This document shows, piece by piece, positions 1 through 62,822 of a stretch of 64,000 nucleotides of DNA. Below the pieces are notes generated by a model that saw only the letters and a list, made by a program, of their open reading frames with translations, made no database searches and had not been told where the DNA came from. Source of the DNA: a virus. The stretch is taken from positions 1-64,000 of the IMG/VR virus record IMGVR_UViG_3300028864_000019; one strand, 5' to 3'. The stretch's first letter is position 1. Each line of letters opens with the position of its first letter. The translations under genes and the position numbers were made by a program.

Positions 1-58
1 ATAAAAGACATCTTTTATGTGGTTATGTATAGGTTACAACCTAGTTATAGCCTTATTA

Positions 59-487
59 TTACTTTTCATTTTTAAGCTTTAGCAGATGTTCCAAACACTC
101 TTGTTCAGTAATTAATTTAATATCATCAACTTCTTCAGGTAAATAAGGTGAACATTGAAAATTTTCAATCTCGTACAATACATTATCTATTATCATAGGT
201 AATACCCACTTATTAATATATTCCTGTTCATCTGCATCATCTTCTAGTAATCCTTCAATATATTCTTTTGCAAACTCTTCAACTGGTTTATCAACTTCTG
301 TAATTTTGTATAATTCACAAGGAGACTCTAAGAACCAATCTCTACCCTCATAATCATGCCTAGAAAACCAAGTTGCTTCAGTTTTATCATTATAGGTTAC
401 TAAAGCATATGTACCAATTTCTAAATTACTATCTATCAAAAACGTTTCTACATTAATCACAATTTTTACCTCCATTAATAAAATCAT
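59..487 (-). CDS. hypothetical phage protein
   Basis: ORF track; co-oriented with neighbours; real start probably a few codons downstream of the GGAGG. Confidence 0.7.
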   Translation of the reverse strand: MILLMEVKIVINVETFLIDSNLEIGTYALVTYNDKTEATWFSRHDYEGRDWFLESPCELYKITEVDKPVEEFAKEYIEGLLEDDADEQEYINKWVLPMIIDNVLYEIENFQCSPYLPEEVDDIKLITEQECLEHLLKLKNEK

Positions 488-881
488 TTAACTTATTTTT
501 TAATTCATTGTACTTAGTACAATCGTTAGAATTATAAAACACATAAATATCTATTAGTTCAAGAAACAATTCATTATGTTTTTGTTTTACTTCTCTATCA
601 CGAACACCTTCTTCACATTTTGAACAGTCATCATTACATTCACTACAATCAGGAGCATCTTGCCAATAACCTAACCTTGGTAAATACCACAATAATAATT
701 CTCTAAATGAAATATTTTTACATTCATCTCTACTATAGAATTCAACCTTACCATTTTCTAAAGTATCTTCATCAAGAAAATTACACTGTTTCCAATACAC
801 ATCACAATCTAAATAACTAACAATTTCTTTTAATCTTTCTTTCATTAACTTTTCCTCCTTTAATATTTCAATAAAATACAT
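453..881 (-). CDS. hypothetical protein with Cys cluster (CSECNDDCSKC)
   Basis: ORF track; likely start MKERLK (845) after GGAGG. Confidence 0.75.
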   Translation of the reverse strand: MYFIEILKEEKLMKERLKEIVSYLDCDVYWKQCNFLDEDTLENGKVEFYSRDECKNISFRELLLWYLPRLGYWQDAPDCSECNDDCSKCEEGVRDREVKQKHNELFLELIDIYVFYNSNDCTKYNELKNKLNDFINGGKNCD

Positions 882-899
882 ATATTAAAAGTCAAACAT

Positions 900-1268
900 T
901 TATAATGTTACTTTGTCTAACATATTAATTTCAATGATTTCATAATCTCTGTAGCCATAATTATTTAATATATACTCTCTAATTGCATCATCATCATCTG
1001 CTCCGTTAGGTCTGTCTTTTTGTTCTACTTTAATTCTTATAGTATCTACATCTTCATTTTCATTAAATACTATACAATAATCACGATATACTTTATTTTC
1101 GTATGTATTATCACTCATAATTTCCTTAATCAATAAATCCAATTTTTCTTCATCGTCAGTGTTTAATTTATATTTTTGAGTTATATCGTCTAGACTCTTT
1201 TGACATTCTTGTTTTATATGTTCAAATAACTCATCTATATTATCAAATTCCATAACATTACACCTCAC
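900..1268 (-). CDS. hypothetical phage protein
   Basis: ORF track, acidic, GAGGTG RBS. Confidence 0.7.
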   Translation of the reverse strand: MRCNVMEFDNIDELFEHIKQECQKSLDDITQKYKLNTDDEEKLDLLIKEIMSDNTYENKVYRDYCIVFNENEDVDTIRIKVEQKDRPNGADDDDAIREYILNNYGYRDYEIIEINMLDKVTL

Positions 1269-1515
1269 AATTTAATAAATTAATAATTTCTAATACTTTA
1301 GTTCTTGCAGACTTTTCGGTTAGTTTAATATGAAAATCATATTCTCTATCTTCTAAAACACACAAAGCTTCAATCCAACCTAGTCCACCACGTTCTGTTA
1401 ACCTTTTTAATGTTTGACTATGATTTCTAATTGCTTGTTTTTCATGTAGTTTTATTATATCTAATGGTATATACTCTTTCGGTTTTGAACCGAGTATTGG
1501 AAATTTATTATCCAT
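1258..1515 (-). CDS. hypothetical protein, paralog of 17929..18177
   Basis: Both start MDNKFPILGS and share NHSQTLKRL.ERGGL.W.E. Confidence 0.8.
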   Translation of the reverse strand: MDNKFPILGSKPKEYIPLDIIKLHEKQAIRNHSQTLKRLTERGGLGWIEALCVLEDREYDFHIKLTEKSARTKVLEIINLLNCEV

Positions 1516-1609
1516 CTTACTTCACCCTTTCTAATATATCTCGTGTACAAGGTATTTAAAGCCACTTGTCATGGCAGTTTATACATAGACTACATATAAA
1601 CAATGTAGT

Positions 1610-2011
1610 CTATAACTTTTCATATAATTTCCCTCTAAGAACTTCTAATTGTTCTTTGAGCTTTCTATTTTCTTCTTGCAATTCTTTAATCTTTTTATCC
1701 TTAGCCATTATAATAATATTTTTCGATTTATCAGTTTTATCATATTTAAGTCTTTGCTTTATAACTTTTTCAGTTTGTTTATCTCTAAGTTCTTCAATTC
1801 TTTTCTTAATTTCAGCATTATTGTACATAAAAGTTTTAGATACACCACTTAGATTACAAACACTATTAAAGTTAATTTTCTGTTCGCCAAGCGACAGCTC
1901 TCGGATGGCTTTATCTACTTTTTCTAATGTTATTTTACTTTTATTTTTAGCATACTCATTTAAACCTTTTGTGCTTCCAACCATCTTAAGATTCCTCCCT
2001 TGACTTACCAT
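1610..2011 (-). CDS. tnpC: Tn554 TnpC-like (DUF6262) protein
   Basis: KVDKAIRELSLGEQKINFNSVCNLSGVSKTFMY HTH followed by coiled coil; position after recombinase. Confidence 0.8.
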   Translation of the reverse strand: MVSQGRNLKMVGSTKGLNEYAKNKSKITLEKVDKAIRELSLGEQKINFNSVCNLSGVSKTFMYNNAEIKKRIEELRDKQTEKVIKQRLKYDKTDKSKNIIIMAKDKKIKELQEENRKLKEQLEVLRGKLYEKL

Positions 2012-4204: not shown

Positions 4205-4317
4205 TTTTATTTTTCTCCTCTATCATTTTATATAATTTATCAATTTCCAAATAAAATACATTTTTTAATTGGAAATTCAATTGCTACAACCCAGTCATAG
4301 ACTCATTCTTGTTTTTA

Positions 4318-5271
4318 CTAAAATTTATATTGTTTCAATATATCTACTATAGCATCAGCAGTCCAACCATTGCCAATAGCTTTTATTCTAGCTTTATCAC
4401 TTAATCCATATGTATATCCATCTGGTAATGTCTGAAGTCGTTCTAACTCGGTAATAGTAAACTTTCTGACTATGCCATCATAATAAACACATATATCACA
4501 ACTACAATCTAAGGTGTTTGATTTGTCTTTTATAACTCGTCCACGTCTTGTCTTACTTGTTGGGAACTGAAGATTAACTCCATCTCCATTCTCTGCCACA
4601 ATATACCCTTGCTTAGTAGCTTGCCTTATTCTTACCTCACCATTAACAACATCTATTAAATTATAGCATTTCTCACTTATGTTAGGATCTATTAATAATC
4701 CTTTATATTTTATGTAATTGCTTGTATCAACTTTTTCTAATATGTCTAATAATTTAATTCGTTTATCTTTTGGCGGTTCTATATATGTACTTGTCCAATA
4801 TAAACGTGGTCGGTTTTGTGCTGAAATAAGTTTACTATTAATCAATGTATATTCACATTTTAAATAATCACTTATAACGTCCCTCCATTCTTTTTTCATT
4901 TCAACATTTTCAAGTAGAAATTGCACATTAGGATTATTATATTTTCTAATTAAATCTAAAACTCTTACATAATCAAAAAATAATTTACTTCTAATATCTT
5001 CAAAATTTAAACATAACCCATTTTTTGAAAACCCCTGACAAGGTGAACCTCCAATAAGTAAATCAATCTTGGGTAAACTTTGTATTAATTCTTTATCTAT
5101 TTTAGTTATATCACCTAATCTAATTATATCGTCAAAGTTATTTTTACTAATATGTATTGCATTTTCATCAATCTCACTTGCATAATACTTATCCACATCA
5201 ATTCCTGCTCTTTGGCATACTAATCTTCCTGTACTGTGTCCATCGAATAAACTTACTATATTTATTTCCAT
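4318..5271 (-). CDS. DNA (cytosine-5)-methyltransferase
   Basis: Motif I SLFDG, IV GGSPCQGFS, VI ENV, VIII QNRPR, IX-X ERLQTLP..IGNGW. Confidence 0.92.
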   Translation of the reverse strand: MEINIVSLFDGHSTGRLVCQRAGIDVDKYYASEIDENAIHISKNNFDDIIRLGDITKIDKELIQSLPKIDLLIGGSPCQGFSKNGLCLNFEDIRSKLFFDYVRVLDLIRKYNNPNVQFLLENVEMKKEWRDVISDYLKCEYTLINSKLISAQNRPRLYWTSTYIEPPKDKRIKLLDILEKVDTSNYIKYKGLLIDPNISEKCYNLIDVVNGEVRIRQATKQGYIVAENGDGVNLQFPTSKTRRGRVIKDKSNTLDCSCDICVYYDGIVRKFTITELERLQTLPDGYTYGLSDKARIKAIGNGWTADAIVDILKQYKF

Positions 5272-5282
5272 ATATTTTCTCC

Positions 5283-6245
5283 TTAGTTGAAATTATTTTC
5301 TATGTATTCTTTTAATTTATCTGCAATTGCTTGTACTACGTTTAAACTCATAGCATTACCCATCATTCTATATGCTTGTGTGTCACTAATAACTATTCTA
5401 TATGTATCAGGTAATCCTTGAAGTTTTAAGCATTCTATAGGAGTTAACCTTCTAACATTAGTTTTGTTTACTGGTTTGTATTCTGTAGATATGTAATTAT
5501 CAGTATCAGCTCTATGCATCTTGTGCATTGTTGAAGTCAACGTTCTAGCTATAGGTAAATTAATCTCCATCTTGCCACTAATCCAACCTTTTGTTCCGGG
5601 ACTCATTATACAATCATACATTTTTTGAGTTAAATAATATTTATCATCAACACTAGGTTCTAATAAATCTTGCATTGTTAATTTTAGTTCTACTGGCTTT
5701 GGAAATTCAAAATTAAATTCACCTAAGTCTTTTCTTTGACCTATTATATACCATCTTCTTCTTGAATGTGGAATTCCAAATTCTGATGTATTTATTAATT
5801 GATATTTTATATTATAATTTTCTTGCATCATTTCTATAACTACCTTAAAATCTTCTCCATTATTACTACTAGATAAATTTCTAACATTTTCAAATATGAA
5901 CCAGCTAGGTAATTTTTCATTTAATATTCTCATGTAATCAAAGAACAAGCAACTTTCTTCACCTTTTAAACCCTTAACTTTGTTATCTTCCGACCATGTT
6001 TTAGACATCATAGAAACTTGAGTACAAGGTGATCCACCAATTAAAATATCAAAATTTGGCAATTCTTTTTCGTTAATTTTTGTAATATCTCCATAATTAA
6101 TTCTATTAGGGAAATTAGCTTTATAGTTTTTAATTGCAAACTTATCAAATTCAGAATATCCTATATTTTCACAACCTATATTATCTAACGCAATACCTCC
6201 AATTCCTGTTCCTGCAAATAATTCAAAATACTTTTTCTTTTCCAT
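5283..6245 (-). CDS. DNA (cytosine-5)-methyltransferase
   Basis: ELFAGTG, GGSPC, FENV, PHSRRR, RRLTPIECLKLQG, MGNAM. Confidence 0.92.
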   Translation of the reverse strand: MEKKKYFELFAGTGIGGIALDNIGCENIGYSEFDKFAIKNYKANFPNRINYGDITKINEKELPNFDILIGGSPCTQVSMMSKTWSEDNKVKGLKGEESCLFFDYMRILNEKLPSWFIFENVRNLSSSNNGEDFKVVIEMMQENYNIKYQLINTSEFGIPHSRRRWYIIGQRKDLGEFNFEFPKPVELKLTMQDLLEPSVDDKYYLTQKMYDCIMSPGTKGWISGKMEINLPIARTLTSTMHKMHRADTDNYISTEYKPVNKTNVRRLTPIECLKLQGLPDTYRIVISDTQAYRMMGNAMSLNVVQAIADKLKEYIENNFN

Positions 6246-6273
6246 TCTTTTAACTTCCTTTCTTTTTATGTAT

Positions 6274-7176
6274 TTAATTTATTTTTAATTCTTTAATAAT
6301 ATGTACAATTGTATCAATATTCCATCCGTTCCCTATGGCTTTATATCTATTACCACATGAAACCCCTTTTACATTTGTGTAATTGTCTGGTAATCCTTGT
6401 AGCCTTTCACACTCAATTTCTGTGAATCTTCTTAATCCGTAATCATCTTTAATTATATTTGGTGCTGATCTATCTCTTCTAAAGCAATGAGGAACTACAG
6501 TATTTGATTTACCATACTTTATACTCTTATTGTAGAAATCATATATAGGAGTTCCTTTTGACCATTTACATGAGACTTCTCTACAAACATCAGCATGTAA
6601 TAATTGATGCTCTTTGCAATAATGTCCTTCCTCAACCTTTTGCTTCTCTATAATATCATCTATGTATATTTCTTTATCATTTATATTTTGTATGTATTCT
6701 ATGTTTGTCCAATAATAACGCTCTCTATTTTGTGCTGAAAATAAATTTGAATTTATAAGCTTACCTTTAATTCCTATGTAGTCATTAATTACCTCAATCC
6801 ATTCTTGTTTCATTTTCACATTCTCTAATAAAAATTTAACATTGGGATTATTATTTTCTTTTATCCAATTCAAGATATTAATAAATTCAAAAAATAATTT
6901 ACTTTGTTTATGTTCAAAATTCAATCCATTCCCTATTCTTGAAAATCCTTGACATGGACTTCCTGCTAATATTAAATCAATTTTGGGCAAGTTCCAATTT
7001 TTCCACTCAGTAACGTCTCCTAATTTATTTTTAACATCTTGTGGATAATTTTTATCAGCTATTAACATTGCATCTTTATCAATCTCACTTGAATAATAAT
7101 TATCTACTTCAATCTGTGCTTTTTCTAATACTACTCTTCCACAACTTATTCCATTAAACAAACTTAATACATTCAC
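6274..7176 (-). CDS. DNA (cytosine-5)-methyltransferase
   Basis: SLFNG, GSPCQGFS, ENV, QNRER, ECERLQG, IGNGW. Confidence 0.92.
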   Translation of the reverse strand: MNVLSLFNGISCGRVVLEKAQIEVDNYYSSEIDKDAMLIADKNYPQDVKNKLGDVTEWKNWNLPKIDLILAGSPCQGFSRIGNGLNFEHKQSKLFFEFINILNWIKENNNPNVKFLLENVKMKQEWIEVINDYIGIKGKLINSNLFSAQNRERYYWTNIEYIQNINDKEIYIDDIIEKQKVEEGHYCKEHQLLHADVCREVSCKWSKGTPIYDFYNKSIKYGKSNTVVPHCFRRDRSAPNIIKDDYGLRRFTEIECERLQGLPDNYTNVKGVSCGNRYKAIGNGWNIDTIVHIIKELKIN

Positions 7177-7289
7177 TTTTTCACTTCCTTTACATTATTC
7201 GTTTAATATAATTTATTAATAACCAAATAAAACTAATATTTTACTTGCTTGTCCAAGTCTGTAAAGTGTCTTATAGCCTCATTCTTTAT

Positions 7290-7502: not shown

Positions 7503-7503
7503 A

Positions 7504-9826: not shown

Positions 9827-9887
9827 ATACTTTATATTTCTCCTTCGTATTTATTAATTTCCTTTTAAAAACATTATTTTAAGTTAA

Positions 9888-13559: not shown

Positions 13560-13598
13560 ATTTTAAATTATTGTCTTAAAATTAAATTTTTATTTAGA

Positions 13599-14880: not shown

Positions 14881-14944
14881 TTTTATATTTCCTTTCTTAT
14901 TTTAATTTATTAACTCCTATTAAAAGAAGTATTTTAACATAATT

Positions 14945-17186: not shown

Positions 17187-17241
17187 GCCTTTAAAATGGC
17201 TCTTTTAATTATTCTTCTAATATAAATATTGTTAATTATTT

Positions 17242-19195: not shown

Positions 19196-19235
19196 TAAAT
19201 ATCTTCTCCTTTCATCTTAAAATTATTGTTTTAAT

Positions 19236-20219: not shown

Positions 20220-20253
20220 ATATTTTGGTAAAATATAGTTTTTACTTGCTTAT

Positions 20254-20997
20254 TTACATTCTCTCTACGTTAAACACATTTTCAGGGAATACTAGCACTT
20301 CAGATTCACTTCTGCCTTCTAAATAATCTAATATGTCTTTCACATTAACTTGACCTTTATATATTTTACCATTCTTACTAAATCTATTAGCAAACCATTT
20401 AGCAGTTTCTAAATTAGTAGTCCACGAATACGCTTTTTTATATGGAGTAGATTTACTATCTTCACCTCTATATATCGGGATAACGTCAGTATCAAATAGC
20501 TCTTTATCTGTTGTGTGATCTTTAAATATTTCTTCAACTAGCGTCCTATCTAAATTCCTAAATCCATATTCACTTGAAGAATAAATATCTATAAACACTT
20601 CATATTTTTGGTCATCTGGAATTTTATCAAATAATTTTTTATACCATTCAAATCTAAGGGGTTTATCTATAAGTATAAACAAATAGCTATAATCATTTTC
20701 TTCGAAACATTTTTTATGAGCTTGTGTTGTTTGTTCAATTCTTTTCTTAATTTGGAATGCCTCAAATGATTGTTTGCTTATTTCATAAATTTCAATATAT
20801 ACCGTACCACCTACATAGCAGTATGGGTGTAATTTACCTTCGACTTGGTAAAATTTATTAATATCCAAATTATAACTAGATATAACTTTTTCAAACTCTT
20901 TATTTTTCAAAACTTTTAAAGGTATTAATTGCAACATATTATTTGAGTGTGCCATTTCATAGATATTATTCTTAGTCATTGTATTCACTCCATTCAA
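20254..20997 (-). CDS. putative ADP-ribosyltransferase-fold protein
   Basis: IYRG, YSWTT, ESEVLV match R-S-E ART motif spacing. Confidence 0.55.
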   Translation of the reverse strand: MNGVNTMTKNNIYEMAHSNNMLQLIPLKVLKNKEFEKVISSYNLDINKFYQVEGKLHPYCYVGGTVYIEIYEISKQSFEAFQIKKRIEQTTQAHKKCFEENDYSYLFILIDKPLRFEWYKKLFDKIPDDQKYEVFIDIYSSSEYGFRNLDRTLVEEIFKDHTTDKELFDTDVIPIYRGEDSKSTPYKKAYSWTTNLETAKWFANRFSKNGKIYKGQVNVKDILDYLEGRSESEVLVFPENVFNVERM

Positions 20998-21051
20998 TTA
21001 TTAATATTATATCTAATTTCTATGTATCTGTCACTCTTAACCCTTAAATTA

Positions 21052-21101
21052 AGTATAAACTTTCCAATCTTGAAAGTCAATACTTCCTACATTAATTTGT
21101 T
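21052..21101 (-). promoter_or_regulatory. sigmaA promoter with repeated operator
   Basis: TTGACT(21080-21075)-17-TATACT(21057-21052); AACAAATTAATGTA 21101-21088. Confidence 0.72.
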
Positions 21102-21147
21102 AAATTATGTTTGGTTTATTAATTTTTAATCTTTAGTATTTTATTAA

Positions 21148-22990: not shown

Positions 22991-23043
22991 ATAATCTCCT
23001 TTCTATTTTTCATAAAATAACATTTTTACTTGGTTTATATTAC

Positions 23044-27540: not shown

Positions 27541-27689
27541 TATATTTTATATCTCCTCTTATAATTTATTGTTTAATCTTAGAAATTCAATTTTAAACTC
27601 TCTCATACTTCCATATACTCACTCATGCTCTGTTTTTCAAGCCTAACTTTCACAATAAAATCAGTATTTTATTTGATAATTATTATCAA

Positions 27690-34422: not shown

Positions 34423-35080
34423 TTATATATCTCCATTCTTTTTAATTTATTAATTATTCTTAGCTGTTTTTCAAACTTGTACATTAAATTTAGCTACTAT
34501 TGGCTTAGATTGTTTTGTATTACCTACCGTATAATAGATTTCAACAGTATTTTTATCTATGTATACTGGTTCTTCAAAACTAACGTTAATTGATAATTTA
34601 CTTGTATCCATATTTCTCACCTACTTATATTTAATATTAATACATTAATTTGTTGTTATCAATATTTTCTTTGGAATATTTTTCTAAATTTATTTATAAG
34701 AGAGTTTTGATTATTCAATTTTTAAACTTCCATTTACTCTCTCATACTCCAGTTTACTCCGTTTTTCAAACATAAAAACCCTTTAAAATTTCCCTTTTAC
34801 TTAAAAATTGTTATATTAATTTATTTATCTCGTATATGTTTTAAATATTTCATTTTCTCTAATCTCGCATTTAGTTTGTAGTCTACAAAGCGATACAACG
34901 AATAATACTGTAAAACTTATTATTATTCCTAAAATTATTAACATTATTATTTCCCCCTTATTTGATTATTTTTATCTCATATAGAGTTTCATTATCTATA
35001 TCATTAACTGTATGTAGCCCTAATAACTTATCTAATACTATTAACCCTATTACTATCAATATTCCTTCTAACATCTTATC

Positions 35081-38546: not shown

Positions 38547-38636
38547 TACGACCACCTTCCGCTTAATTAATTCCTTCTTAATTTCCAATTAAAATTACTT
38601 TTTTATATACTTTAATTTGTTTCATCTCATGTTTAA

Positions 38637-38902: not shown

Positions 38903-38932
38903 AAAAGAAAGACTAGAAATTACTTCTAGTCT
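38903..38932 (-). terminator. intrinsic terminator after the integrase-fold repressor gene
   Basis: AGACTAGAA/TTCTAGTCT stem followed by TTCTTTT on the minus strand. Confidence 0.75.
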
Positions 38933-38933
38933 A

Positions 38934-40091
38934 CTACTCTATATCAACAGCGTCAAAGCCGATTGATGCACAAATATCTTTAACTGTTTGATATGAGTTT
39001 GGATCTATTACTTTAAACTCTGCTGTTTTAGCTTTAAAACTTCCTGTTTGTCGCTTGATAACATTATCTCCAGTCAAACTCTCATATCTCTTTCTCATCA
39101 TAGCGACTGATGTAGCATTAATTTTAGATTCATTGAAAATCTTAATTATAGCTTCAATATCATATGAACTAATCTTTCTCTCTTTTCTAATTTGTAATAA
39201 TAATTCAAACTCTCTAGTAAATAATAAATCGTTAAAAGAAATTCTATCTATTTTTTCTGCATCTATTACTTCTTCTTTTCGTTTTTTATTTAATAATTTA
39301 AACGCAGTAAACACTCTACTATTTACAGTATTATAATTAGCTATTTCTCTCGTATTAATTACATATGCGTCAGATTGGAATAATTGTTTTATTGATTCTT
39401 CTTCTACAATACTATCTACTTCTAATAAAAACTCTATAAATCTATCATCAATCGGCATCAATGTTATAAACTCTTCATTCTCATTATAAACACTGATAAA
39501 TTTGTTTACTACATCTATATCTTTATATCTCAATCGTCTCATATAAATCACTTCTCTACCTAAAACACCATATCGAGCTAATAATAGTGGCTTTATATTT
39601 TCTGAACCAACACACTCTTTCATTTCTCTCATTAAACTATAAAATTCATCCATATTGTATAATTTAGTTTGAAGTAGTTTTTTACTAGATTTTAGAGTCT
39701 TCATAGATTCTACTCCGGACAATGGGTTAACAGATATATCCCCTTTTTCAATATAGTATTCAAAATACTTATTAACAAACAGTTTTATAGTTCCCATTGT
39801 ACTCTCCATAGCATATATGAAGCTATTTAGCATAGATACTACTTCGTTACTCTTAAAGTCTTTTAAATCTTTATTTTTAGCAACTTCATAATCATGGATA
39901 TTGTTATTATAAACCGACCATAAAGGCTTTTTAGTTATTTCGTCCTCATAAGTATTATTTAACCACACAATCTTATCTATTTGAAATTGGTCATATTCAC
40001 CTAAGATTCTTTGCTTTTCCTTTTCTGTTGCTTCAGGTGTATCTCTTTCGTATTTTTGACCTATAAATTCTAAATTTTCTTTAAGCAACAC
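38934..40091 (-). CDS. integrase-fold protein lacking catalytic motifs, SPbeta YopR/MrpR(SroF)-like master repressor
   Basis: Core-binding domain (YE...KDL..F..; YFEYYIEKG..NP) and LLARYGV.G..LRYKDID without the catalytic R or HxxR; follows the DndB-like gene. Confidence 0.7.
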   Translation of the reverse strand: MLLKENLEFIGQKYERDTPEATEKEKQRILGEYDQFQIDKIVWLNNTYEDEITKKPLWSVYNNNIHDYEVAKNKDLKDFKSNEVVSMLNSFIYAMESTMGTIKLFVNKYFEYYIEKGDISVNPLSGVESMKTLKSSKKLLQTKLYNMDEFYSLMREMKECVGSENIKPLLLARYGVLGREVIYMRRLRYKDIDVVNKFISVYNENEEFITLMPIDDRFIEFLLEVDSIVEEESIKQLFQSDAYVINTREIANYNTVNSRVFTAFKLLNKKRKEEVIDAEKIDRISFNDLLFTREFELLLQIRKERKISSYDIEAIIKIFNESKINATSVAMMRKRYESLTGDNVIKRQTGSFKAKTAEFKVIDPNSYQTVKDICASIGFDAVDIE

Positions 40092-41517
40092 GTAGCACCT
40101 CCACTGTTAAATTTGCAAAATAATTATACACATCTTTATAATTACACGTATTTGGACTATTCTTTAATTTTAATTTTTTTAGTTCAGATTCTGGAATTGA
40201 ATATATATTATCAACAATCTCATCTATCCTATTATAATCTCCTAGTACTCTCATTGTATTTGCAATCGCAAGATAACCAACAAACATATTGCAGTCTAAA
40301 AGACTACTGTTATTTTTCATTTCTTCTATATCATCATTAAAATATTTAAATTTCAATGTATCAATTAATTCATCAATTGTTGAACCCAATTTTTTTGATA
40401 TATCTCTAACTAATCCTTTTTTCTCTACAGGAATTTCGGTTAATGTTAAAGCATCTAATAATATAGTTTTATAAGTTAACTTTCTTACCATTTTACGTTC
40501 TTCAAAATTTAATGCAATTTCGTCTTTTAATACTGTTGAATTCTCTTCAATTAATTTCAAGAAATCTACATCATCGCCTTGTTTAAATCCTTTAATAAAT
40601 TCAGGATTTGTATCTGATCTCTCGAATATTTGTCTGATTAATTCTTGAGCATCAGATAAACTTCTCAATACAACCCTAATATCTAGACCACCTTGTAATA
40701 TAGCACCGTTATTTTGTGCTTTATACTGTTCTACAGCTTGATATACTGCTAACATTCTATGAAAACCATCTAACATATCTATAACTGTGAAAGTCTCACT
40801 ATCTAAATCATAATTCGGACTTACATATAAAGTTCCTACATTTGGGTATTTTTCTTCATCTATTGATTCATAATGGCGATTAGGTTCAAAATTTTCCTCT
40901 CCTTCAGCAAGTCTAATATTCACAATTATTTGAGTATCTTCTAATTTTTTGGTTTTAGACAATAATAAATTTGTCATTGCGTCAACATTTTTCTGATTAA
41001 TATCAATAATTCTAACTGAATCGTCTTTAGTCCCTAACGATTTTGTCTTGTATGCTCTCTGAGATAATTTGTTATATCTGAATAGTACAAATTTAATATA
41101 ATTATAGATTTGTTCATATGTGATTCGCCCAACATAGTTATAATTATCTACTTTTTGCATAAAAGGCAATACTACTTGTGTTACCTTCTTCTCTACATTA
41201 GTAAAACTATTATAGTCTAAAATATCTGTATCGCTAAAATATTTTCTATAGTTTAATTTTTCTAATGCTAAAACCTCATAGCAAACCTTAGTAATAGCAA
41301 TTTTTTCTTCTTTAGATAATTTGTTTAATTTAACTGAACCGTCTAAAAACAATCCTGCTGTGATGTTTGTATTCAAATTCTTTTTAGCCAATTCTACATT
41401 AATTGATTTAATCAGCCCTTTATTTTTAAATTCTTTATTAACCACATTTTCTAATTCTTTATTTAAATTGTCCTGACTATAAATCATGACTTCTTGTTGT
41501 CCTTGTTTAAGTTCCAT
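40081..41517 (-). CDS. DndB/ParB-like (DGQHR family) protein, SPbeta YopQ/SroE-like
   Basis: YNKLSQR, IIVN, IDMLDGFHRMLA; overlaps the repressor gene. Confidence 0.72.
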   Translation of the reverse strand: MELKQGQQEVMIYSQDNLNKELENVVNKEFKNKGLIKSINVELAKKNLNTNITAGLFLDGSVKLNKLSKEEKIAITKVCYEVLALEKLNYRKYFSDTDILDYNSFTNVEKKVTQVVLPFMQKVDNYNYVGRITYEQIYNYIKFVLFRYNKLSQRAYKTKSLGTKDDSVRIIDINQKNVDAMTNLLLSKTKKLEDTQIIVNIRLAEGEENFEPNRHYESIDEEKYPNVGTLYVSPNYDLDSETFTVIDMLDGFHRMLAVYQAVEQYKAQNNGAILQGGLDIRVVLRSLSDAQELIRQIFERSDTNPEFIKGFKQGDDVDFLKLIEENSTVLKDEIALNFEERKMVRKLTYKTILLDALTLTEIPVEKKGLVRDISKKLGSTIDELIDTLKFKYFNDDIEEMKNNSSLLDCNMFVGYLAIANTMRVLGDYNRIDEIVDNIYSIPESELKKLKLKNSPNTCNYKDVYNYFANLTVEVLRVA

Positions 41518-42248: not shown

Positions 42249-42458
42249 ATGGTTAGGATGAGGTTACATATTCTGATGGCTGAACGTGGCATCACTCAAA
42301 AACAACTATCTCTTATTGTTGGGATCAGGCAAGGAACATTAAGTGGTTATTGTTCAAATAATTATAAACATATTGTAAATACACATATAAATAAGTTATG
42401 TACTTACTTTAATTGCAGTATTTCAGATTTAATTGAATATAAACAAGATAATTCTTAA
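42249..42458 (+). CDS. XRE/Cro-type HTH regulator
   Basis: LHILMAERGITQKQLS..GIRQGTLS..LC.YFNC.I.DLIEY; AGGAG RBS; terminator follows. Confidence 0.85.
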   Translation: MVRMRLHILMAERGITQKQLSLIVGIRQGTLSGYCSNNYKHIVNTHINKLCTYFNCSISDLIEYKQDNS

Positions 42459-42511
42459 AGATTAGATATTAATATTTTTATCTAGTCTTTTTATTTTCCA
42501 TATTTTAGTAC

Positions 42512-42561
42512 GAATGTTTGTTCTCTATTGTTATTATATTACAGAACGTGCGTTTGGTCAA
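42512..42561 (-). promoter_or_regulatory. LexA (SOS)-boxed sigmaA promoter oriented antisense to the XRE gene
   Basis: TTGACC(42561-42556)-17-TATAAT(42538-42533); GAAC-N4-GTTT at 42544-42555 and GAAT-N4-GTTC at 42512-42523. Confidence 0.7.
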
Positions 42562-42772
42562 TGCAAATTTTAACTATTCCGTATTTTGATAAATATTTAA
42601 CAAATTTATATACATTAAGATAAATTTTTATCAAGGTATTGTCTAAGTATTATTATGTTCATTATGTTCATTGTCTATGTTCATTTTCTATTATACACTA
42701 ATTATCATGATAATAGTTTGACTCACAGGCAAACTTTAAGCTAAAGATATGTAAATTACCAATATTTATTCA

Positions 42773-42827
42773 TTGATTCGACAATAACTTTCATGATATA
42801 ATAATGAAAATAATAACTTTTGTCGAA
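42773..42827 (+). promoter_or_regulatory. promoter with two Spo0A boxes
   Basis: TTCGACA 42777-42783 and TGTCGAA 42821-42827; TGnTATAAT 42794-42802. Confidence 0.55.
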
Positions 42828-42839
42828 AGGGTCTAGTTA

Positions 42840-43133
42840 ATGTATTACTTACCGATAAAAAAGATAAGGCATCTCAAGGGTATGACATTGAAAGAACTAT
42901 CAGAAAAAACTGGATTATCTATTTCTTATTTGAGTAGATTAGAAGACGATAATAGCACTAGAAGTCGGACTCCAACTTTAATAACTTTAGAAAAAATTGC
43001 AATCGGGCTTTCGGTATGTCCAACAGATTTAATCTTTTACTTATGCACTAATTGTCAAATAAACAACTGTAAAAAGAGAGATAGTATAGATTTAAATAAG
43101 TTAATTGAAGAAAATTTAAACTTTTATATTTAA
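42840..43133 (+). CDS. XRE/SinR-like HTH regulator with Cys-rich tail
   Basis: IKKIR..KGMTLKELSEKTGLSISYLSRLE..PTLITLEKIA. Confidence 0.85.
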   Translation: MYYLPIKKIRHLKGMTLKELSEKTGLSISYLSRLEDDNSTRSRTPTLITLEKIAIGLSVCPTDLIFYLCTNCQINNCKKRDSIDLNKLIEENLNFYI

Positions 43134-43144
43134 TTATATTATAT

Positions 43145-43180
43145 AAGCTAGGATAAATTTAATAATCCTAGCTTATTTTT
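43145..43180. terminator. terminator between convergent genes
   Basis: AAGCTAGGAT..ATCCTAGCTT stem with T tract. Confidence 0.75.
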
Positions 43181-43185
43181 ATATA

Positions 43186-44145
43186 TTAATCATCAATATC
43201 TACTTCATATCTATACATTGAATCATAAAGTTTCTTCGGTATTTTATCTTTATAATAATCTGCTACTTCTTTAATGTGTTTTTCCTTATATACTTTATAT
43301 CTTTGAAATGCTTCATTTTGATCTGAATATGAACCAAGATAAACTTTATTATTTAATAAGGTATTCCTACATGTTGATATAAACTTACCATTATCATCAT
43401 CAAAATATACCCCTATGGGATATTTTCCTCTTGCTTTATCACATTTAGTAAATAAACTATTAATTTTTTGTGGTACAAATACACATGTTTCTGGAGAGTA
43501 TATTTTATTTCCTTTACATAGAATATCCTTATCCAATGCCATAATCTCATTATTTATTTCATAATAATTCTTTTCGTACCACGTTGCAAAGTTTTGGAAA
43601 TTATGCCACGATTTATCTGCTACGCAATATTTATAAGTTGGTGTTTTTAATTTTTGGTTCTCATTGTAGCATCGGGTCAGCATGCTTTTCCATGTCATAA
43701 ATTGCTTATTATATTTTAATTTAGAATAATCAACATGATATTTACCCTCTCCTAAGTAGCCTATATTAAATACAAATTTGTGATATGGGTTTATAATAGT
43801 CCCTAGTTTAAAACTATTATAAGTTTTATGCTTTACAATAATACCATCTTCGAATTTAACATTTATATCGTTTTGATTTATATAGTTGATTATTTCCATT
43901 TTTTCATTTACTTTATTATAATTTGTTTCACCCGTTCTATCTTTAAATTTATTTAGTAATGCACATTCTGGGCATCCATGACCACATAACAAGTTTAATG
44001 GAATAGATTTCCATTCATGATTACATGACTTGTCCTTTACTAAAATTTTAGTTGTGCTATTAATATACTCTTCGATCACCTCAATATTCGGATTAATAAC
44101 AAACATTTCTTCTTTAAATTGTTCTGTAGTTTTTCTTTTCCCCAT
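43186..44145 (-). CDS. HNH-type homing endonuclease, paralog of 35836..36792
   Basis: Same LDKDIL.KGNKIYSP.TC.FVP core; N-terminal HEW..GHGCPEC module. Confidence 0.82.
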   Translation of the reverse strand: MGKRKTTEQFKEEMFVINPNIEVIEEYINSTTKILVKDKSCNHEWKSIPLNLLCGHGCPECALLNKFKDRTGETNYNKVNEKMEIINYINQNDINVKFEDGIIVKHKTYNSFKLGTIINPYHKFVFNIGYLGEGKYHVDYSKLKYNKQFMTWKSMLTRCYNENQKLKTPTYKYCVADKSWHNFQNFATWYEKNYYEINNEIMALDKDILCKGNKIYSPETCVFVPQKINSLFTKCDKARGKYPIGVYFDDDNGKFISTCRNTLLNNKVYLGSYSDQNEAFQRYKVYKEKHIKEVADYYKDKIPKKLYDSMYRYEVDIDD

Positions 44146-45470: not shown

Positions 45471-45543
45471 TTCTCAACACCTCTTAGTATTAATAATATT
45501 ACCAATTTACCTAGACTCTAAACCTATAAAATCAGATTTTTAT

Positions 45544-46339: not shown

Positions 46340-47263
46340 TTATAAATCCTCCATAACGTTTTTCATACGCTCTTCGTCCATTGTTATATATACTCTCGAA
46401 GTGTTGATATTTTCATGCCCTAAAACTTCTGCTACCATTAAAATATCTTTAGTTTTTCTGTATACATTAGTTCCTACGGTATGCCTTGTAGTATGTGTTA
46501 CATATTTCTTATCTGTAAGACGTGCTATTTTGTATAATTTTTTCATCATAACTTGCACTGAACTTTTATCAATACCCCTTCTAAAATTTGATATGAATAG
46601 AACATTCTTATATTCCTCATCAACACCTTCTACTATTCTATTTTCCATATATTCTTTTATTGCTTCTAAACATTTTTTATTTAAATAAACAGAATCTTCT
46701 TTATTTCCTTTTCTTAATATTAGTAATTTATTTTCTTGAATATCATTTAGTTTTATATGAGCAAGTTCTGAAACACGAATACCAGTATTTAATAGTATAG
46801 TCACAATACATTTATTTCTATAATAAAACATATCTTCACGATTCAAAGCATCATATATTTTTTCAACTTGTTCATCTGTAAATGCTATTGGAATTTTCTT
46901 ACCTATTTTGGGGCTATCTAAATCTTCTGCTATATTTGTAGCTACAATATTTTCTTTACGCAAATATTTCCAATAAGATCTTAAACAAGCAACCTTTCTA
47001 GCTCTTGCATATTCTGAATTTTCTAGTTTATTTTTTGAATAGTTTATAAATTTATTTAAATCGTATGTTTGTAATGATTTTAATGTTTTATTGGAAATTT
47101 CTTTTTTATTTTTGTAATCTTTCAAGAATGTAAAAAATACTCTTAAATCTGATTCATACCCTGATATTGTTGTTTTAGCTTTATTATCTGTATTTAATTG
47201 TTCTAAAAAATCCATTGCTGATAATGGTAATTTTATATTATTTTTCTTTTCCATGATTGTCAC
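46340..47263 (-). CDS. XerC/XerD-like tyrosine recombinase, catalytically intact
   Basis: TISGYESDL, RARKVACLRSY, TGIRVSE, RKGNKE, THTTRH, LGHE..RVY. Confidence 0.92.
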   Translation of the reverse strand: MTIMEKKNNIKLPLSAMDFLEQLNTDNKAKTTISGYESDLRVFFTFLKDYKNKKEISNKTLKSLQTYDLNKFINYSKNKLENSEYARARKVACLRSYWKYLRKENIVATNIAEDLDSPKIGKKIPIAFTDEQVEKIYDALNREDMFYYRNKCIVTILLNTGIRVSELAHIKLNDIQENKLLILRKGNKEDSVYLNKKCLEAIKEYMENRIVEGVDEEYKNVLFISNFRRGIDKSSVQVMMKKLYKIARLTDKKYVTHTTRHTVGTNVYRKTKDILMVAEVLGHENINTSRVYITMDEERMKNVMEDL

Positions 47264-48634: not shown

Positions 48635-48960
48635 ATAAATAATCCTCTCTTATATTTTATTTTATTTGCACTAATTCAACTTCATCAGTTTTCAATCTTC
48701 TAATTCCTCCATATGTAAATAATTCAATGGTATCACCTTTAACAAATCCTATAAATACTTTATCCTTTAGTTTATCATCATTTAATATTTTAAAAGCTCC
48801 CAATGTTATCTTACCTCCTGAATCCCACTATATTTTTTCTTTGTTTATTCTTAGTAACATCTTTATAGCTAATTCATATTCTCCAGCTTCTAATAACCCT
48901 TTTATAATACCTTTCATTTCAACTACCTCCTATTTGTTATTTTCTTAATCTCTTTTCTAT

Positions 48961-49010
48961 ATTATAGCATTTATATTTCAATATTGCAATACTTTATATA
49001 TTAATTTATT
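48961..49010 (-). promoter_or_regulatory. sigmaA promoter with repeated operator
   Basis: TTGCAA-17-TATAAT; AATAAATTAATATA 7 bp upstream of -35. Confidence 0.68.
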
Positions 49011-51840: not shown

Positions 51841-51886
51841 CTCCTCAATATTTAATTATATTATAACTCCGATTAAAAGAACTATT

Positions 51887-52666
51887 TTAAGCCAACATAT
51901 TATTTTTATTGTATAAATATCTTAAACCATCAGCTAAGTTCTTTAAAGCTTCTGGTGATGGTTTATTGCATCTTACGGTTATAGTCACTTCTCTACCACC
52001 AATAATTCTCTTATCAACCGTTGTAGTCCACTCGCTTTTATTAACAGATTCAACTTCCTCTAAATCAACTGCCTTTATTTCCTTTTCATTTAATGATTGA
52101 CATACAACATTTATTTCTAATGGAATATTTCTTTTTCTATCTCTATAATTTTTAGAAATGAATCTAGCTATATATTCTATTTTAATATCAACATCTCTAT
52201 ATTCATTGTTATCTTTTACGAAATCATCATATAAGTATTTTATCATAGAATATTCTTTTTGTATTTTTGCTAAATTTAATGACATAAATTTATGTTTATA
52301 ATCATCATATTGTTTAGATGATTTTTTATTGCTCTTTATTAATACAGGAATTAATTTATCTATTATTGTATTTATATAATCACTAATATTTTTATAATTT
52401 TTTGTAACAGCTTTTAATAAACTTGTATTGAAGTCTTTCTCCCAATTATTACATAACTTAATTAACTTGAAAATCTCAAACATTTCATATCCTTCGGTTG
52501 GAATATGAACAAATTTCAAAGGTTCGTATTTTTCAAATTCTGATTTTATAAAGTTAGCATTAATATTATATTTTTCTAGTTCTAATTTTAATCCTTCTAT
52601 AGTTGCGTTTCTGTTCCCGTACATATATTTTTTAACTATAGTCTCATATCTTTTTATTTGTGGCAT
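51887..52666 (-). CDS. hypothetical protein
   Basis: ORF track; stop coincides with dyad arm 51885-51889. Confidence 0.72.
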   Translation of the reverse strand: MPQIKRYETIVKKYMYGNRNATIEGLKLELEKYNINANFIKSEFEKYEPLKFVHIPTEGYEMFEIFKLIKLCNNWEKDFNTSLLKAVTKNYKNISDYINTIIDKLIPVLIKSNKKSSKQYDDYKHKFMSLNLAKIQKEYSMIKYLYDDFVKDNNEYRDVDIKIEYIARFISKNYRDRKRNIPLEINVVCQSLNEKEIKAVDLEEVESVNKSEWTTTVDKRIIGGREVTITVRCNKPSPEALKNLADGLRYLYNKNNMLA

Positions 52667-52743: not shown

Positions 52744-53220
52744 TTATTTATTCATTAATACATTTATTAACATTCTATACTCATTAGGTATTAAACTCAA
52801 TACTAAGCTATTGTCTGTGTACTTTAAAGCCTTATCAAAATTATTTTCTATACTAAAAGTTATGAATGATTTTATATATCTTTCTTGATTATTTCTAGTA
52901 ACACCTTCAAAATTATTTAAATAGCTTTCTAACTCGTTAGTATTAATCTCTAAAATATCTTTATCAATTGCATCTATAAATCTTTTAACTGCACTCTTAT
53001 ATTGAGGTAGGCTTGATTTAGTTTTACCACTGTTACTCTCAAAGTTATTCCAGTATTCTTGATTAATCCCTTTGATTGAATAAAGTTCTTTTCTAACTTC
53101 TAACCCCTTATAAAATTGCTCCCCTTTATGATAATTTCCTTTAGTTGTACTATTTGATGCTATCAAATTATTTGATCTAGATTTATAACTTTCAAAATTT
53201 ACAAGTTCCATATAAAACAC
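52744..53220 (-). CDS. stand-alone integrase core-binding (SAM-like) domain protein
   Basis: KSSLPQYKSAVKRF..KDILEI....LESYL..TRNNQERYIKSFI.F; no catalytic domain. Confidence 0.55.
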   Translation of the reverse strand: MFYMELVNFESYKSRSNNLIASNSTTKGNYHKGEQFYKGLEVRKELYSIKGINQEYWNNFESNSGKTKSSLPQYKSAVKRFIDAIDKDILEINTNELESYLNNFEGVTRNNQERYIKSFITFSIENNFDKALKYTDNSLVLSLIPNEYRMLINVLMNK

Positions 53221-53279
53221 TCCTCATTAATATTTAATTACTTTTTATGTAGCATTTCCGTAACTCTTATCTTATATTC

Positions 53280-53329
53280 ATTATAAATCTTTTCTTTATA
53301 AATTGCAATACTTCTTACATTAATTTATT
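53280..53329 (-). promoter_or_regulatory. sigmaA promoter with repeated operator
   Basis: TTGCAA-17-TATAAT; AATAAATTAATGTA 53329-53316. Confidence 0.68.
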
Positions 53330-53503
53330 GAATTATTTTTTATACTAAGCAACTTATATTATTCAAAATCCATTCTAATGAAGTACCACGTTCTAATAAT
53401 TCCTGTACTTTTCCCACAAAGCTTAAATTTATATTGATATTTTCCTTTGTACAACTTTCTACAATCTTACTGTATATATTTATACTCATATGTATTACCT
53501 CCT

Positions 53504-53698: not shown

Positions 53699-53752
53699 TT
53701 TATTTCCCTCCTATATTTTACAATTAAAATTTGATTTTTATCAGCTTATTTT

Positions 53753-57021: not shown

Positions 57022-57064
57022 TTTACATTTCTTCTTCTTACTTTAATTTATTTTTATTAATATT

Positions 57065-57115
57065 AGTATAAACTTTCCATTTTTAATTGTCAATTGCTTT
57101 TTATATTAATTTATC
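57065..57115 (-). promoter_or_regulatory. sigmaA promoter with repeated operator
   Basis: TTGACA(57093-57088)-17-TATACT; operator 57102-57115. Confidence 0.72.
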
Positions 57116-57137
57116 ATAACCTATTCAAATGAGTAAT

Positions 57138-57967: not shown

Positions 57968-58097
57968 TTTCTTCCTCCTAATTTTAATTGATAATTATTA
58001 TTGATAAAATTCATGTTTTATTTACTATTGATTATTATTTTCAATTAGTTCTATGTAAAAGAAAAGGAACTTATTAAAAGCTCCTGAATTATAATTA

Positions 58098-61066: not shown

Positions 61067-61556
61067 TTTGATCTCCTTATATGCTTTTCAGGATTAAGCA
61101 TAACCATATATTTTTTACTTTTAATATTAATTTGTTTTATTCCTATGTAAGTTACAAGTTGTAACTTGTTTCTGTTCTCTATATATACTATTATACGCTC
61201 GTGTTTAGATAATGTCAACAAATTAATGTAGAAACAACTGATATTTTTTAATTATTTTTAGGCAATAAAAAGAAGCTTTTTCAAGCTCCAGTTATTTATA
61301 TTATAGTCAGATAATATTTTAATAAATTTTATCTCTTAAATACTCTCTTATGCTTCCAAATGCTCTAGTTTTCAAGGGTATAATTAGAATAAAATGGATA
61401 TTTTAAAGATATATGTAAAGCTCATATGGACGTTTTAAGATTATATATTTTTATATGTGTTATTCGTTGCTGAATTGATTTAATGTTGATCTGGTGGTTT
61501 GTATGATGTTTAGTTTATTAATTTTAGACATTAAAAAAGAAGGTCTTTTAACCTCC

Positions 61557-61946
61557 TTAATTATTAAACCATTCTATTAATTCATTTTCGTTATTACACT
61601 CGAACAATAATTCATCAAAATTATTGTCCCACCCATAAACCACAAATTTAAAATTATCTGCATCATCTATATTAATTGAATATATAAGTTGACCATCTGC
61701 ACCTGAAATATTGAGTTCATCGTAAGCTCTGTGATTTTTAAACCAAATATGCATATCTTGTGAGTCAAATTTTGAATCTTTAATATTTTTAATTATATTC
61801 CCCATGTAAATTGTTTTATCCCTTAATTGTCCATCTTTACAGTTCCAATCAAACCAGCCTGCATCAATTTGTGTATCTATTTTCTTTTTATTAAAATCTC
61901 CATTGTTAAATTTTTCAATCCATTGATTCATGTTTATTTTTATCAT
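61557..61946 (-). CDS. hypothetical protein, paralog of 14015..14431
   Basis: Sequence similarity. Confidence 0.8.
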   Translation of the reverse strand: MIKINMNQWIEKFNNGDFNKKKIDTQIDAGWFDWNCKDGQLRDKTIYMGNIIKNIKDSKFDSQDMHIWFKNHRAYDELNISGADGQLIYSINIDDADNFKFVVYGWDNNFDELLFECNNENELIEWFNN

Positions 61947-62114
61947 TATTAATTTACTCCTTTATATCTTAGTTGTTTTGCTTCTTTAATATATTATATG
62001 ATTTATGCACCTAAAAGATTCCTATTTAAATTAAATATATTAATTTATTTCTGACTACTTAAAAGTTGAAATTTATTAGCTGACAAACTAAAAAGAAGCC
62101 TTTCAGCTTCTTAA

Positions 62115-62330
62115 TTAATTTATACATATTGTTTTTAATGGTCTTGGTGCTACCATATCATCACTCATAAGTGATAAACTAAAATGTTTTGAAAAACGTT
62201 GGCTATTTTTGAAATTGTTATACATCTTTTTAGCTTCTGCAATAGTTGAACATTCAATATTGAATGATTGTACTTGATCAAAATTTCTTCCCCTTCTGCA
62301 AGATATTGAGAATGTTGATATTTTATTCAT
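62115..62330 (-). CDS. hypothetical protein downstream of the hammerhead
   Basis: ORF track; AGGAG RBS; terminator at 62090-62112. Confidence 0.68.
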   Translation of the reverse strand: MNKISTFSISCRRGRNFDQVQSFNIECSTIAEAKKMYNNFKNSQRFSKHFSLSLMSDDMVAPRPLKTICIN

Positions 62331-62386
62331 TTTAAAAACTCCTTTGATATATACCTTAACCGCCTTGTAGGTCGGTGGTGTTTTTT

Positions 62387-62445
62387 GTAAGTGACCACTT
62401 TTTCAAGTGGTTTCGTATCAATTTTCAGATACTCTTCAGACTTAC
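62387..62445 (-). ncRNA. type I hammerhead ribozyme
   Basis: Minus strand reads GUAAGU CUGAAGA GUAUC UGAAAAUU GAUAC GAAA CCACUU GAAA AAGUGG UC ACUUAC: core CUGANGA and GAAA, GUC cleavage triplet, three fully paired stems. Confidence 0.9.
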
Positions 62446-62577
62446 TTATTTTACTCTGTTTATATATTCCATTCGTTTGATACTATTTAAACTGCTCCAA
62501 CTTGGATAAATTCCTAAACTTTCACATTCTGCATAATATAAATCAATTGCTTTTTCTCTTATTTCTAAAGTTATCAT
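62446..62577 (-). CDS. 43-aa protein MITLEIREKAIDLYYAECESLGIYPSWSSLNSIKRMEYINRVK (not in ORF track)
   Basis: AAGGAG RBS; stop abuts hammerhead stem I. Confidence 0.65.
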   Translation of the reverse strand: MITLEIREKAIDLYYAECESLGIYPSWSSLNSIKRMEYINRVK

Positions 62578-62822
62578 TTTAAAATCTCCTTAATATTTGC
62601 CTTAACCACTATTTCTAGTTGGTGGTTTTTAATTTGCTTTATCTTTATAATTTATTATATGCTTATTAGATTATAATTACCACAACTTTTTAATAGATTA
62701 ATGTATAAACCATTCGACAAATTGCGATAAAACTGAGTTTTTATTTGGATATTGATTATTTATTTCAATTAAAATAGGAATAAAAAGAAAAGGATATATA
62801 AAAATATACCCTCAATACCTTT

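Follow-up and report, generated by a model that had tools for sequence, protein, structure and literature searches.

The first 64,000 nucleotides (hereafter the window) of the 111,869-bp virus record IMGVR_UViG_3300028864_000019, here called G000, were analyzed for a 16-bp repeated element, the dyad TAAAA-N6-TTTTA, which a preliminary description had taken for the recombination site of an integron- or dif-like system that captures and shuffles gene cassettes. The record was estimated by CheckV to be about 54% complete, its G+C content was 25.5%, and the minus strand carried the genes of the first 75 kb or so, the plus strand those of the remainder. The source DNA was present in many peat-metagenome runs, and megablast of the window against phages gave no match. 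A 942-aa homolog of the YonO-type single-chain RNA polymerase, sharing 33-35% identity with those of SPbeta-group phages, was encoded outside the window, and a YopQ homolog and a protein of the MrpR family were encoded within it. Judged by these three markers, all of which were found, the phage is SPbeta-like. The perfect dyads, one degenerate copy and the genes relevant to them are collected in Table 1, in which G004 and G005 denote two related peat phages.

Table 1 Dyads and selected genes of the window, with the positions at which relatives carry the same spacer
Feature	Position	Strand	Remarks
Dyad TAAAAgacatcTTTTA	2..17	.	perfect; spacer also at collinear G005:108346
Degenerate dyad TAAAAtacataTATTA	872..887	.	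aligned with perfect dyad G005:108346; G005 homology begins exactly here
Tyrosine recombinase, 552 aa	1986..3644	-	PF00589 E = 6e-30
Three-gene block (two C5 DNA methylases, 300-aa open reading frame) between dyads 4252 and 7228	4243..7225	-	Pfam PF00145
Dyad, spacer tacatt	4252..4267	.	perfect; spacer common to G004:178366, G005:109787
Dyad, spacer ctaata	7228..7243	.	perfect; spacer common to G004:174970
Dyad, spacer acatta	9866..9881	.	perfect; spacer common to G004:173529
Dyad, spacer ttaaat	13577..13592	.	perfect; spacer common to G004:169484, G005:116203
Dyad, spacer gaagta	14921..14936	.	perfect; spacer common to G004:166357
Dyad, spacer tggctc	17192..17207	.	perfect; spacer common to G004:164174
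Dyad, spacer ttattg	19218..19233	.	perfect; spacer common to G004:163684
Dyad, spacer tatagt	20229..20244	.	perfect; spacer common to G005:122354
Dyad	23013..23028	.	perfect
Dyad	27656..27671	.	perfect
Dyad, spacer tgcaaa	30112..30127	.	perfect; spacer common to G005:131706
Dyad	34784..34799	.	perfect
Dyad	38590..38605	.	perfect; preceded by three tandem TTGACA promoters, followed after 43 nt by MazF-like gene
MrpR/SroF-family protein (recombinase-fold repressor family)	38934..40091	-	Pfam MrpR_N_CB match
YopQ homolog	40081..41517	-	tblastn E = 2e-11 against SPBc2 yopQ
Dyad, spacer tcagat	45527..45542	.	perfect; spacer common to G004:133511, G005:149290
Tyrosine recombinase, 307 aa, canonical	46340..47263	-	PF00589 E = 6e-33; RVSEL, HTTRH, LGH and Y motifs
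Dyad	51874..51889	.	perfect; arm is the TAA stop of gene 51887-52666
Dyad, spacer tttgat	53725..53740	.	perfect; spacer common to G005:156968
Dyad, spacer ttcatg	58005..58020	.	perfect; spacer common to G005:159368
Dyad	61390..61405	.	perfect
Dyad, spacer ctgagt	62728..62743	.	perfect; spacer common to G004:126605

The number of perfect dyads in the window was 20, compared with 0-4 when the same arms were separated by any other spacer from k = 0 to 15, and in the whole record 27 copies were counted against 0-6 at other spacers. Almost all of them (26 of 27) were intergenic, in a record of which intergenic DNA makes up 20%. A de novo scan of all 5-mer dyads with k = 0-12 returned TAAAA/TTTTA at k = 6 as the sole over-represented dyad, and neighbouring perfect copies were approximately 1-5 kb apart. 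In this way, the inverted arms around a 6-bp spacer noted in the preliminary description proved to be a real layout, its count of 19 perfect intergenic copies needed correction to 20, and the sharp and nearly exclusively intergenic peak at k = 6 that it had predicted was obtained. Its variant sites were not distinguished from background, as intergenic one-mismatch copies numbered 29 at k = 6 against 10-34 at other k without clear enrichment, and compensated double changes such as TGAAA/TTTCA, which it had read as co-varying arms, occurred at chance level (5 at k = 6, 4-10 elsewhere). Some degenerate copies were real relics, for example that at 872, which aligned with a perfect dyad of a relative. 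The site-free region that had been proposed between 35 and 44.7 kb contained the perfect copy at 38590, the rule of one gene per consecutive site pair depended on the variant sites, and among five TAA stops said to lie on an arm, the one at 51887 belonged to a perfect copy but the other four did not.

For a sequence logo, 100 co-directional intergenic sites from G000 and two relatives were pooled. The logo was symmetric over about 34 bp, with A at -9, W at -6, C-rich positions at -4/-5, the two arms, G-rich positions at +4/+5, W at +6 and T at +9, and beyond these 34 bp neither information nor an asymmetric promoter-like block at a fixed distance was found. The CC and GG flank preferences were complementary in type, and their co-occurrence within a site was not above that given by column composition, so the longer pairing arms that had been described earlier were not confirmed. 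Because the complementary preferences do not co-occur within sites, they indicated two independent half-sites on double-stranded DNA and not a stem. The symmetric logo, the independence of the half-sites and the lack of a fixed-distance promoter element therefore pointed to a dimer on double-stranded DNA. From these results, the dyad was identified as a site on double-stranded DNA, symmetric and about 34 bp long, and the alternatives of RNA hairpin, promoter and terminator were discarded. Recognition as a promoter, by the YonO polymerase or by a sigma factor of the phage, was rejected for want of an asymmetric element at a fixed distance. The binding protein was sought by gene sharing among G000, G004, G005 and SPbeta, for which BLAST-level overlap was too sparse, and the shared small proteins had no Pfam family.

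The dyad was also abundant in relatives. It was present in 45 copies in G004 (control 7), 43 in G005 (control 6), 34 in SPbeta (SPBc2, AF020713; 0-3 at other spacings), 30 in phi3T (control 1-4), 31 in Goe14 (control 0-2) and 17 in the Psychrobacillus phage Perkons (control 2), and a weak signal was obtained for C. botulinum p1BKT015925 (31, control 14). No enrichment was seen in the complete record G001 (5, control 5) or in a 38-kb C. perfringens plasmid (2, control 3).

The spacers revealed a second level of conservation. Within one genome all of them differed, and none was duplicated or palindromic in any of six genomes. Between genomes, spacers identical at 6/6 positions were found in 10 pairs of G000 and G004 sites, 9 pairs of G000 and G005 sites and 9 pairs of G004 and G005 sites, compared with 0, 0 and 0 in the control orientation, and all 28 pairs had syntenic orientation and perfect collinear order. 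Matches at 5/6 positions were not in excess in two of the three genome comparisons, so the spacers were either intact or unrecognisable. Identity was 1.0 across the shared 16-mer and fell to background (0.3-0.55) at -1 and +16. Between 4-20 kb of G000 and 163-178 kb of G004, seven consecutive sites matched and only 2 of about 40 genes were shared. The relatives kept the same 16-mers in the same order, each spacer standing like an address for its position, and the genes between them differed, which agreed with the earlier proposal that the sites bound exchangeable accessory genes.

The relation of the dyads to mosaic junctions was evaluated in the Bacillus phages SPbeta, phi3T and Goe14, as G000 was too diverged from G004 and G005, and six ordered comparisons were made with a control for intergenic length. 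Among 404 homology ends, 53 (13%) fell at most 10 nt from a dyad, while the dyads with 10 nt on either side make up 0.9% of the genome and about 4% of the intergenic DNA. Intergenic regions of 30-199 nt were broken in 42% of cases when they carried a dyad and in 20% when they did not (odds ratio 1.5-5.9, always above 1). At shared dyads, homology began 1-10 nt before the dyad in 17 cases or ended 0-9 nt after it in 9 cases. The same spacer was present in both genomes at nearly all of these junctions, the other flank was unrelated, and at some of them two unrelated upstream genes both ended on the TAA of the arm. Cases in which the dyad stayed with the module downstream of it were about twice as numerous as those in which it stayed with the upstream one.

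Junctions formed in the laboratory were then compared with the dyads. In the experimental evolution of SPbeta x phi3Ts by Dragos et al., 14 of 16 junctions lay in homology of 1.4-6.9 kb (bioRxiv 10.1101/2020.05.06.055103, Suppl. Table 1). The published positions were converted to SPBc2 positions (x) by chromosome = 2,286,445 - x, ±5, a relation calibrated on the 2.5-kb junction 8. The "30 bp" junction 7 (x about 69,413) was found to be the shared dyad TAAAAtgcataTTTTA (SPbeta 69424, phi3T 62423), the flanks of which are unrelated, and N1, the sole "non-homologous" junction (x about 116,412), lay about 3-15 nt from the shared dyad TAAAAtattccTTTTA (SPbeta 116415, phi3Ts 107397, phi3T 107932). 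For N1 the published phi3Ts coordinate is the end of a coding sequence, and its exact base lies within the calibration of ±5 nt. The two least-homologous laboratory junctions, 7 and N1, map next to shared dyads.

Joints at or inside dyads of the window were also detected in assembled contigs of four peat runs; those quoted in this work are among the ones listed and are supportive, not quantitative, and stretches lacking coverage or joints seen on one low-depth contig carry little weight. Gene blocks were present or absent beside dyads in these contigs. The joint 20244|20986, at the dyad 20229, occurred in contigs of all four runs, and the joint 16418|20222 in contigs of two, and a single low-depth contig connected 4242 with 7226, the methylase block between dyads 4252 and 7228 being absent from it. 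Homology of G000 to G005 by blastn stopped at 19234, by the dyad 19218.

Based on these results, the reading that we prefer, with a confidence that stays somewhat short of even, is that the dyads are fixed, position-specific joints for in-register module exchange among SPbeta-like phages. A dimeric phage protein would bind each dyad as a double-stranded site in which both 5-bp arms are invariant, the outer half-site positions are weaker and complete the footprint of about 34 bp, and the 6-bp spacer is unique. Breaking and joining at the dyad would connect only equivalent positions of two co-resident phages, because the spacer differs within a genome and is kept at the corresponding site across genomes. 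The exchange would swap the content on one side of the dyad with the order of genes preserved.

In geometry the dyad matches the core site of a tyrosine recombinase, as expected for dif, pdif and loxP-type sites: two inverted arms flank a spacer of 6-8 bp, here TAAAA-N6-TTTTA with symmetric outer preferences at -4/-5/-6/-9, the footprint is about 34 bp, the sites stand at module boundaries, and an XerD-like gene of the YomM type co-occurs with them. For junctions inside the site, another expectation for a core site, the picture was mixed: junction 7 lay in a 30-bp patch centred on a shared dyad and 53 of the 404 homology ends came within 10 nt, but many breaks lay just outside, N1 seemingly among them. 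Unlike in dif, pdif and lox, the arms of the dyad are symmetric with five invariant bases, dozens of sites occur per genome in a fixed order with conserved spacers of their own, the dyads are not XerC/XerD half-sites, and binding and strand exchange are putative. Instead of the asymmetric XerC/XerD half-sites and alternating orientation of pdif modules, the dyad has arms that form a perfect palindrome, and its orientation, as judged from the spacer, was conserved and collinear.

SPbeta-group phages use a serine recombinase for integration and yet retain yopP and yomM, both of which encode tyrosine recombinases. Homologs of YomM were found in all seven dyad-rich genomes tested, including phi3T, Goe14, Perkons (62% identity), G004 (E = 6e-24), G005 (E = 3e-7) and p1BKT015925 (E = 2e-24), and none was found in the two complete dyad-poor records, G001 and the C. 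perfringens plasmid. The catalytic Arg, Lys, His and Tyr were invariant among the aligned proteins, and the clostridial-type members kept HxLRH and Trp. The YomM-type XerD-like recombinase is taken as the best candidate for the enzyme, as a lead and not a result. Near these genes, two perfect dyads 22 nt apart were seen at G004:26709-26746, about 150 nt downstream of the YomM-like gene (G004:26760-27836), and SPbeta and phi3T each carry a dyad about 415 nt downstream of yomM. Two recombinases of the window, of 307 and 552 aa, were also considered and were rejected as dyad enzymes; they have only generic similarity to YomM and YopP, nothing ties either of them to the dyads, and PF00589 genes occurred in every genome, the dyad-less G001 included.

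Several observations weigh against the dyads as exchange joints. About 87% of the homology breakpoints were away from dyads, and at 11 junctions a dyad was present in one genome only and the break lay just outside it. The ends of high-scoring segment pairs from blastn of G000 against G004 and G005 fell at dyads in 3 of 400 cases, compared with a null expectation of 8, in genomes too diverged for a sharp test, and the result is taken as uninformative. The association of junctions with dyads could partly reflect operon boundaries, intergenic length being the only property controlled for. N1 seems to lie a few bases outside its dyad, possibly at an AATAA microhomology, so that a break close to the dyad is suggested in preference to a clean exchange inside it. 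As for the enzyme, YomM was not found in the G000 record, which is about 54% complete and from which most of the late region, the location of yomM in SPbeta, is missing; in the Bacillus YomM the second catalytic Arg is replaced by Lys; and the co-occurrence of YomM with the dyads is confounded by phylogeny. Site-specific recombination as the reaction, and the enzyme performing it, are what we infer, with protein binding and cleavage putative. Selection for evolvability would be a weak force, and the intactness of the spacers is not accounted for by it. The stronger form of the proposal, a dedicated "addressed" site-specific recombination system in which a YomM-type enzyme acts on dozens of 16-bp sites with unique spacers and nearly non-homologous phages swap modules in register, is possible but on balance doubtful. 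If true, such a system would be the analogue, in DNA phages, of segment reassortment.

Placement of the dyads bears on a different explanation, that they are architectural or regulatory binding sites of a dimeric DNA-binding protein of the phage or the host. The protein would sit after gene ends and ahead of early promoters by 70-90 bp, where it would insulate, form a roadblock or act as a nucleoid organiser for the early arm, and junctions would pile up beside the dyad only since it must be retained and marks the boundaries of units. Over the 100 pooled sites of three genomes, the median distance from stop codon to dyad was 24.5 nt, and at 10 sites the TAA of the arm was itself the stop, in agreement with the preliminary description, which had placed the sites just after stop codons. 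In long intergenic regions the dyad was closer to the upstream stop than to the next start in 35 cases against 13. Strong sigma-A-type promoters, where present, had their -35 element 40-65 nt from the dyad start (a promoter of this kind begins 57 nt from the start of dyad 13577). The dyads were concentrated in the small-gene early arm, and 7-8 of the 34 SPbeta copies adjoined annotated terminator stem-loops. This arrangement, the symmetric double-stranded logo, the junctions just outside the dyad and its preference for the downstream module all suit a bound protein that punctuates the early arm. However, the -35 elements showed no helical phasing with the dyads, and many sites lay in intra-operon gaps of 40-60 nt without a nearby promoter. 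A spacer that is not read by the bound protein should drift, and this was disfavoured because the spacers stayed 6/6 identical in the 28 collinear pairs while the flanks were randomised; the minimal-homology laboratory junctions also fell at shared dyads. We regard this explanation as the main rival and a serious one, although rather unlikely. An activator site of class-I type was rejected separately, on the lack of helical phasing with the -35 element.

The integron- or pdif-like array of the preliminary description is very unlikely. In such an array, the recombinase encoded at 46340 would cut out individual genes as circles and insert them at different dyads within one genome. The proposal draws on the core-site-like layout and on two cases of apparent gain or loss. 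In run X11, one contig of depth 5.6 read 4242 + TTTCCG + 7226, so that the joint lay in or at the left arm and a single dyad with the 7228 spacer was retained; this single low-depth contig therefore indicated a co-occurring relative without the two-methylase block between dyads 4252 and 7228. At the left end of the window, the gene after the degenerate dyad 872 directly follows dyad 108346 in G005, and the genes at 59-845 for this reason look like an insert between two dyads relative to G005. Against such an array, each site has a unique spacer and none is duplicated, which disfavours recombination between different sites and thus shuffling within one genome; the order of sites is conserved; perfect sites enclose several genes; promoters are present; most breakpoints are not at dyads; and the arms are symmetric, unlike XerC/XerD half-sites. 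Like integron attC sites, the dyads stand close behind gene ends, sometimes overlap the stop and delimit accessory genes. Unlike attC, which consists of long imperfect palindromes acting as folded single strands, they have no potential for a single-strand hairpin, keep a fixed order and have promoters between them. An IntI/attI/Pc platform was not seen in the window, where no search for the IntI-specific domain was made, and sigma-A-like promoters were found between the sites. The 46340 recombinase is tied to the sites by nothing and resembles YomM and YopP only weakly, and the motif co-occurs elsewhere with the YomM type. The expected breaks of relatives at the sites were enriched in the SPbeta-group phages, but most breaks lay elsewhere. 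In this way, what survives of the capture-and-shuffle proposal, in modified form, is recombinase-type sites that delimit exchangeable genes; an integron-style mechanism and shuffling were not supported.

The dyad as the operator of the MrpR/SroF-family repressor of the window, in the manner of SPBRE, is highly improbable and was rejected. The open reading frame of this protein directly follows the yopQ homolog, which is the position of yopR, and its nearest relatives are at 76-89% identity; 52 homologs were found, most of them with PF22822, with or without PF22823, and scans of viral and genome contigs with the protein as query gave no matches. Like the operators of MrpR (YopR) and SroF, the dyad is a repeated intergenic element of the early arm in the same group of phages, with a member of the recombinase-fold family encoded in the window, and MrpR, which has a recombinase fold, binds repeated intergenic boxes (PMC10516654). 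Chromatin affinity purification sequencing (ChAP-seq) of MrpR in SPbeta gave 10 peaks, from which SPBRE was derived as the motif (PMC10516654), and its homolog in phi3T, SroF, is a monomer when bound to its box, which is asymmetric and 26 bp long (bioRxiv 10.1101/2025.11.27.690993). SPbeta has both elements, and SPBRE (ATACA-N7-TGTAT upstream of yonP, yonX, aimR, yopV and yosX) differs in sequence and geometry from the 34 dyads, which lie in different places. In addition, both an MrpR-family gene and YonO are present in the complete relative G001, which has no dyad enrichment, and an identical dyad motif is found in G000 and G005, between which the MrpR-like proteins share only 29% identity.

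An RNA hairpin serving as terminator, processing site or stabiliser of mRNA 3' ends, to which the placement right after stop codons and a well-folding site 4252 (z = -3.2, the only significant fold among nine sites) would be suited, was likewise rejected and is scarcely credible, as the other eight folds did not surpass those of shuffled sequences (z +0.2 to -1.8), with the dyad hairpin missing from several, the minimum free energies were -0.5 to -6 kcal/mol without the GC-rich hairpin and U tract of intrinsic terminators, flank pairing and compensatory changes were at chance, canonical GC-rich terminators occur elsewhere in the window, and Rfam and tRNA scans gave no matches.

Mosaicism of phages is usually explained by random illegitimate recombination filtered by selection, together with homologous exchange. 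Known intergenic elements that are short and conserved, border variable genes and lie where mosaic junctions occur are the PeSL cassettes of T4-type phages, consisting of a promoter and a stem-loop, and the "linker" or "boundary" sequences of lambdoid phages, longer patches of homology for homologous recombination. The dyads are similarly short, conserved and intergenic, flank variable genes and lie at mosaic junctions, but each is an abrupt 16-bp island with a site-specific spacer and with neither promoter nor hairpin. No description of the dyad motif was found in the literature searched. A large group of phages, including a model phage studied for 50 years, carries a conserved scaffold of unique 16-bp sites around which the gene content turns over. 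If an enzyme acts at the dyads, this would be a new and programmable exchange of modules between viruses, would assign a role to the tyrosine recombinases that are orphans in phages with serine integrases, and would suggest a set of orthogonal recombination sites for engineering. If the dyad is only a binding site, it would still be an undescribed genome-wide regulatory or architectural element of SPbeta.

Other repeated elements were observed near the dyads and promoters of the window. A second repeat, GGCTATRACTRGGTTGTAGCC, with a 5-bp GGCTA/TAGCC stem and an 11-nt loop, lay 15-25 nt from several dyads; copies were located at 31-51, 4281-4305, 30151-30175 and near G000:111,800-111,830, and the repeat was inverted at the two contig ends. 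A conserved minus-strand element of about 60 nt, beginning cTTGAAAAACnGAGCA...GAGAGAGT, had three copies (about 27560-27640, 34700-34770 and 61300-61375), just downstream of dyads 27656, 34784 and 61390, and could be a leader or a small RNA. The motif AATAAATTAATATA, in coding orientation, recurred directly upstream of near-consensus sigma-A promoters (TTGCAA/TTGACA-N17-TATAAT) and also in front of many ribosome-binding sites, with intergenic examples at 48804-49010, 53212-53339, 20980-21147, 57022-57137 and 35729-35835. At 38547-38933, three tandem TTGACA promoters and dyad 38590 precede an operon for the MazF-like protein and a 217-aa helical protein. HNH and homing-endonuclease paralogs were spread over the early arm (35836-36774, 43186-44145, 31557-32972 and 63020-64081), each with homologs in the peat relatives. 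Finally, 890 bp at 42296-43185, upstream of the YopQ and MrpR-like genes, had no long open reading frame on the dominant strand and contained terminator-like palindromes and promoter-like boxes on both strands.

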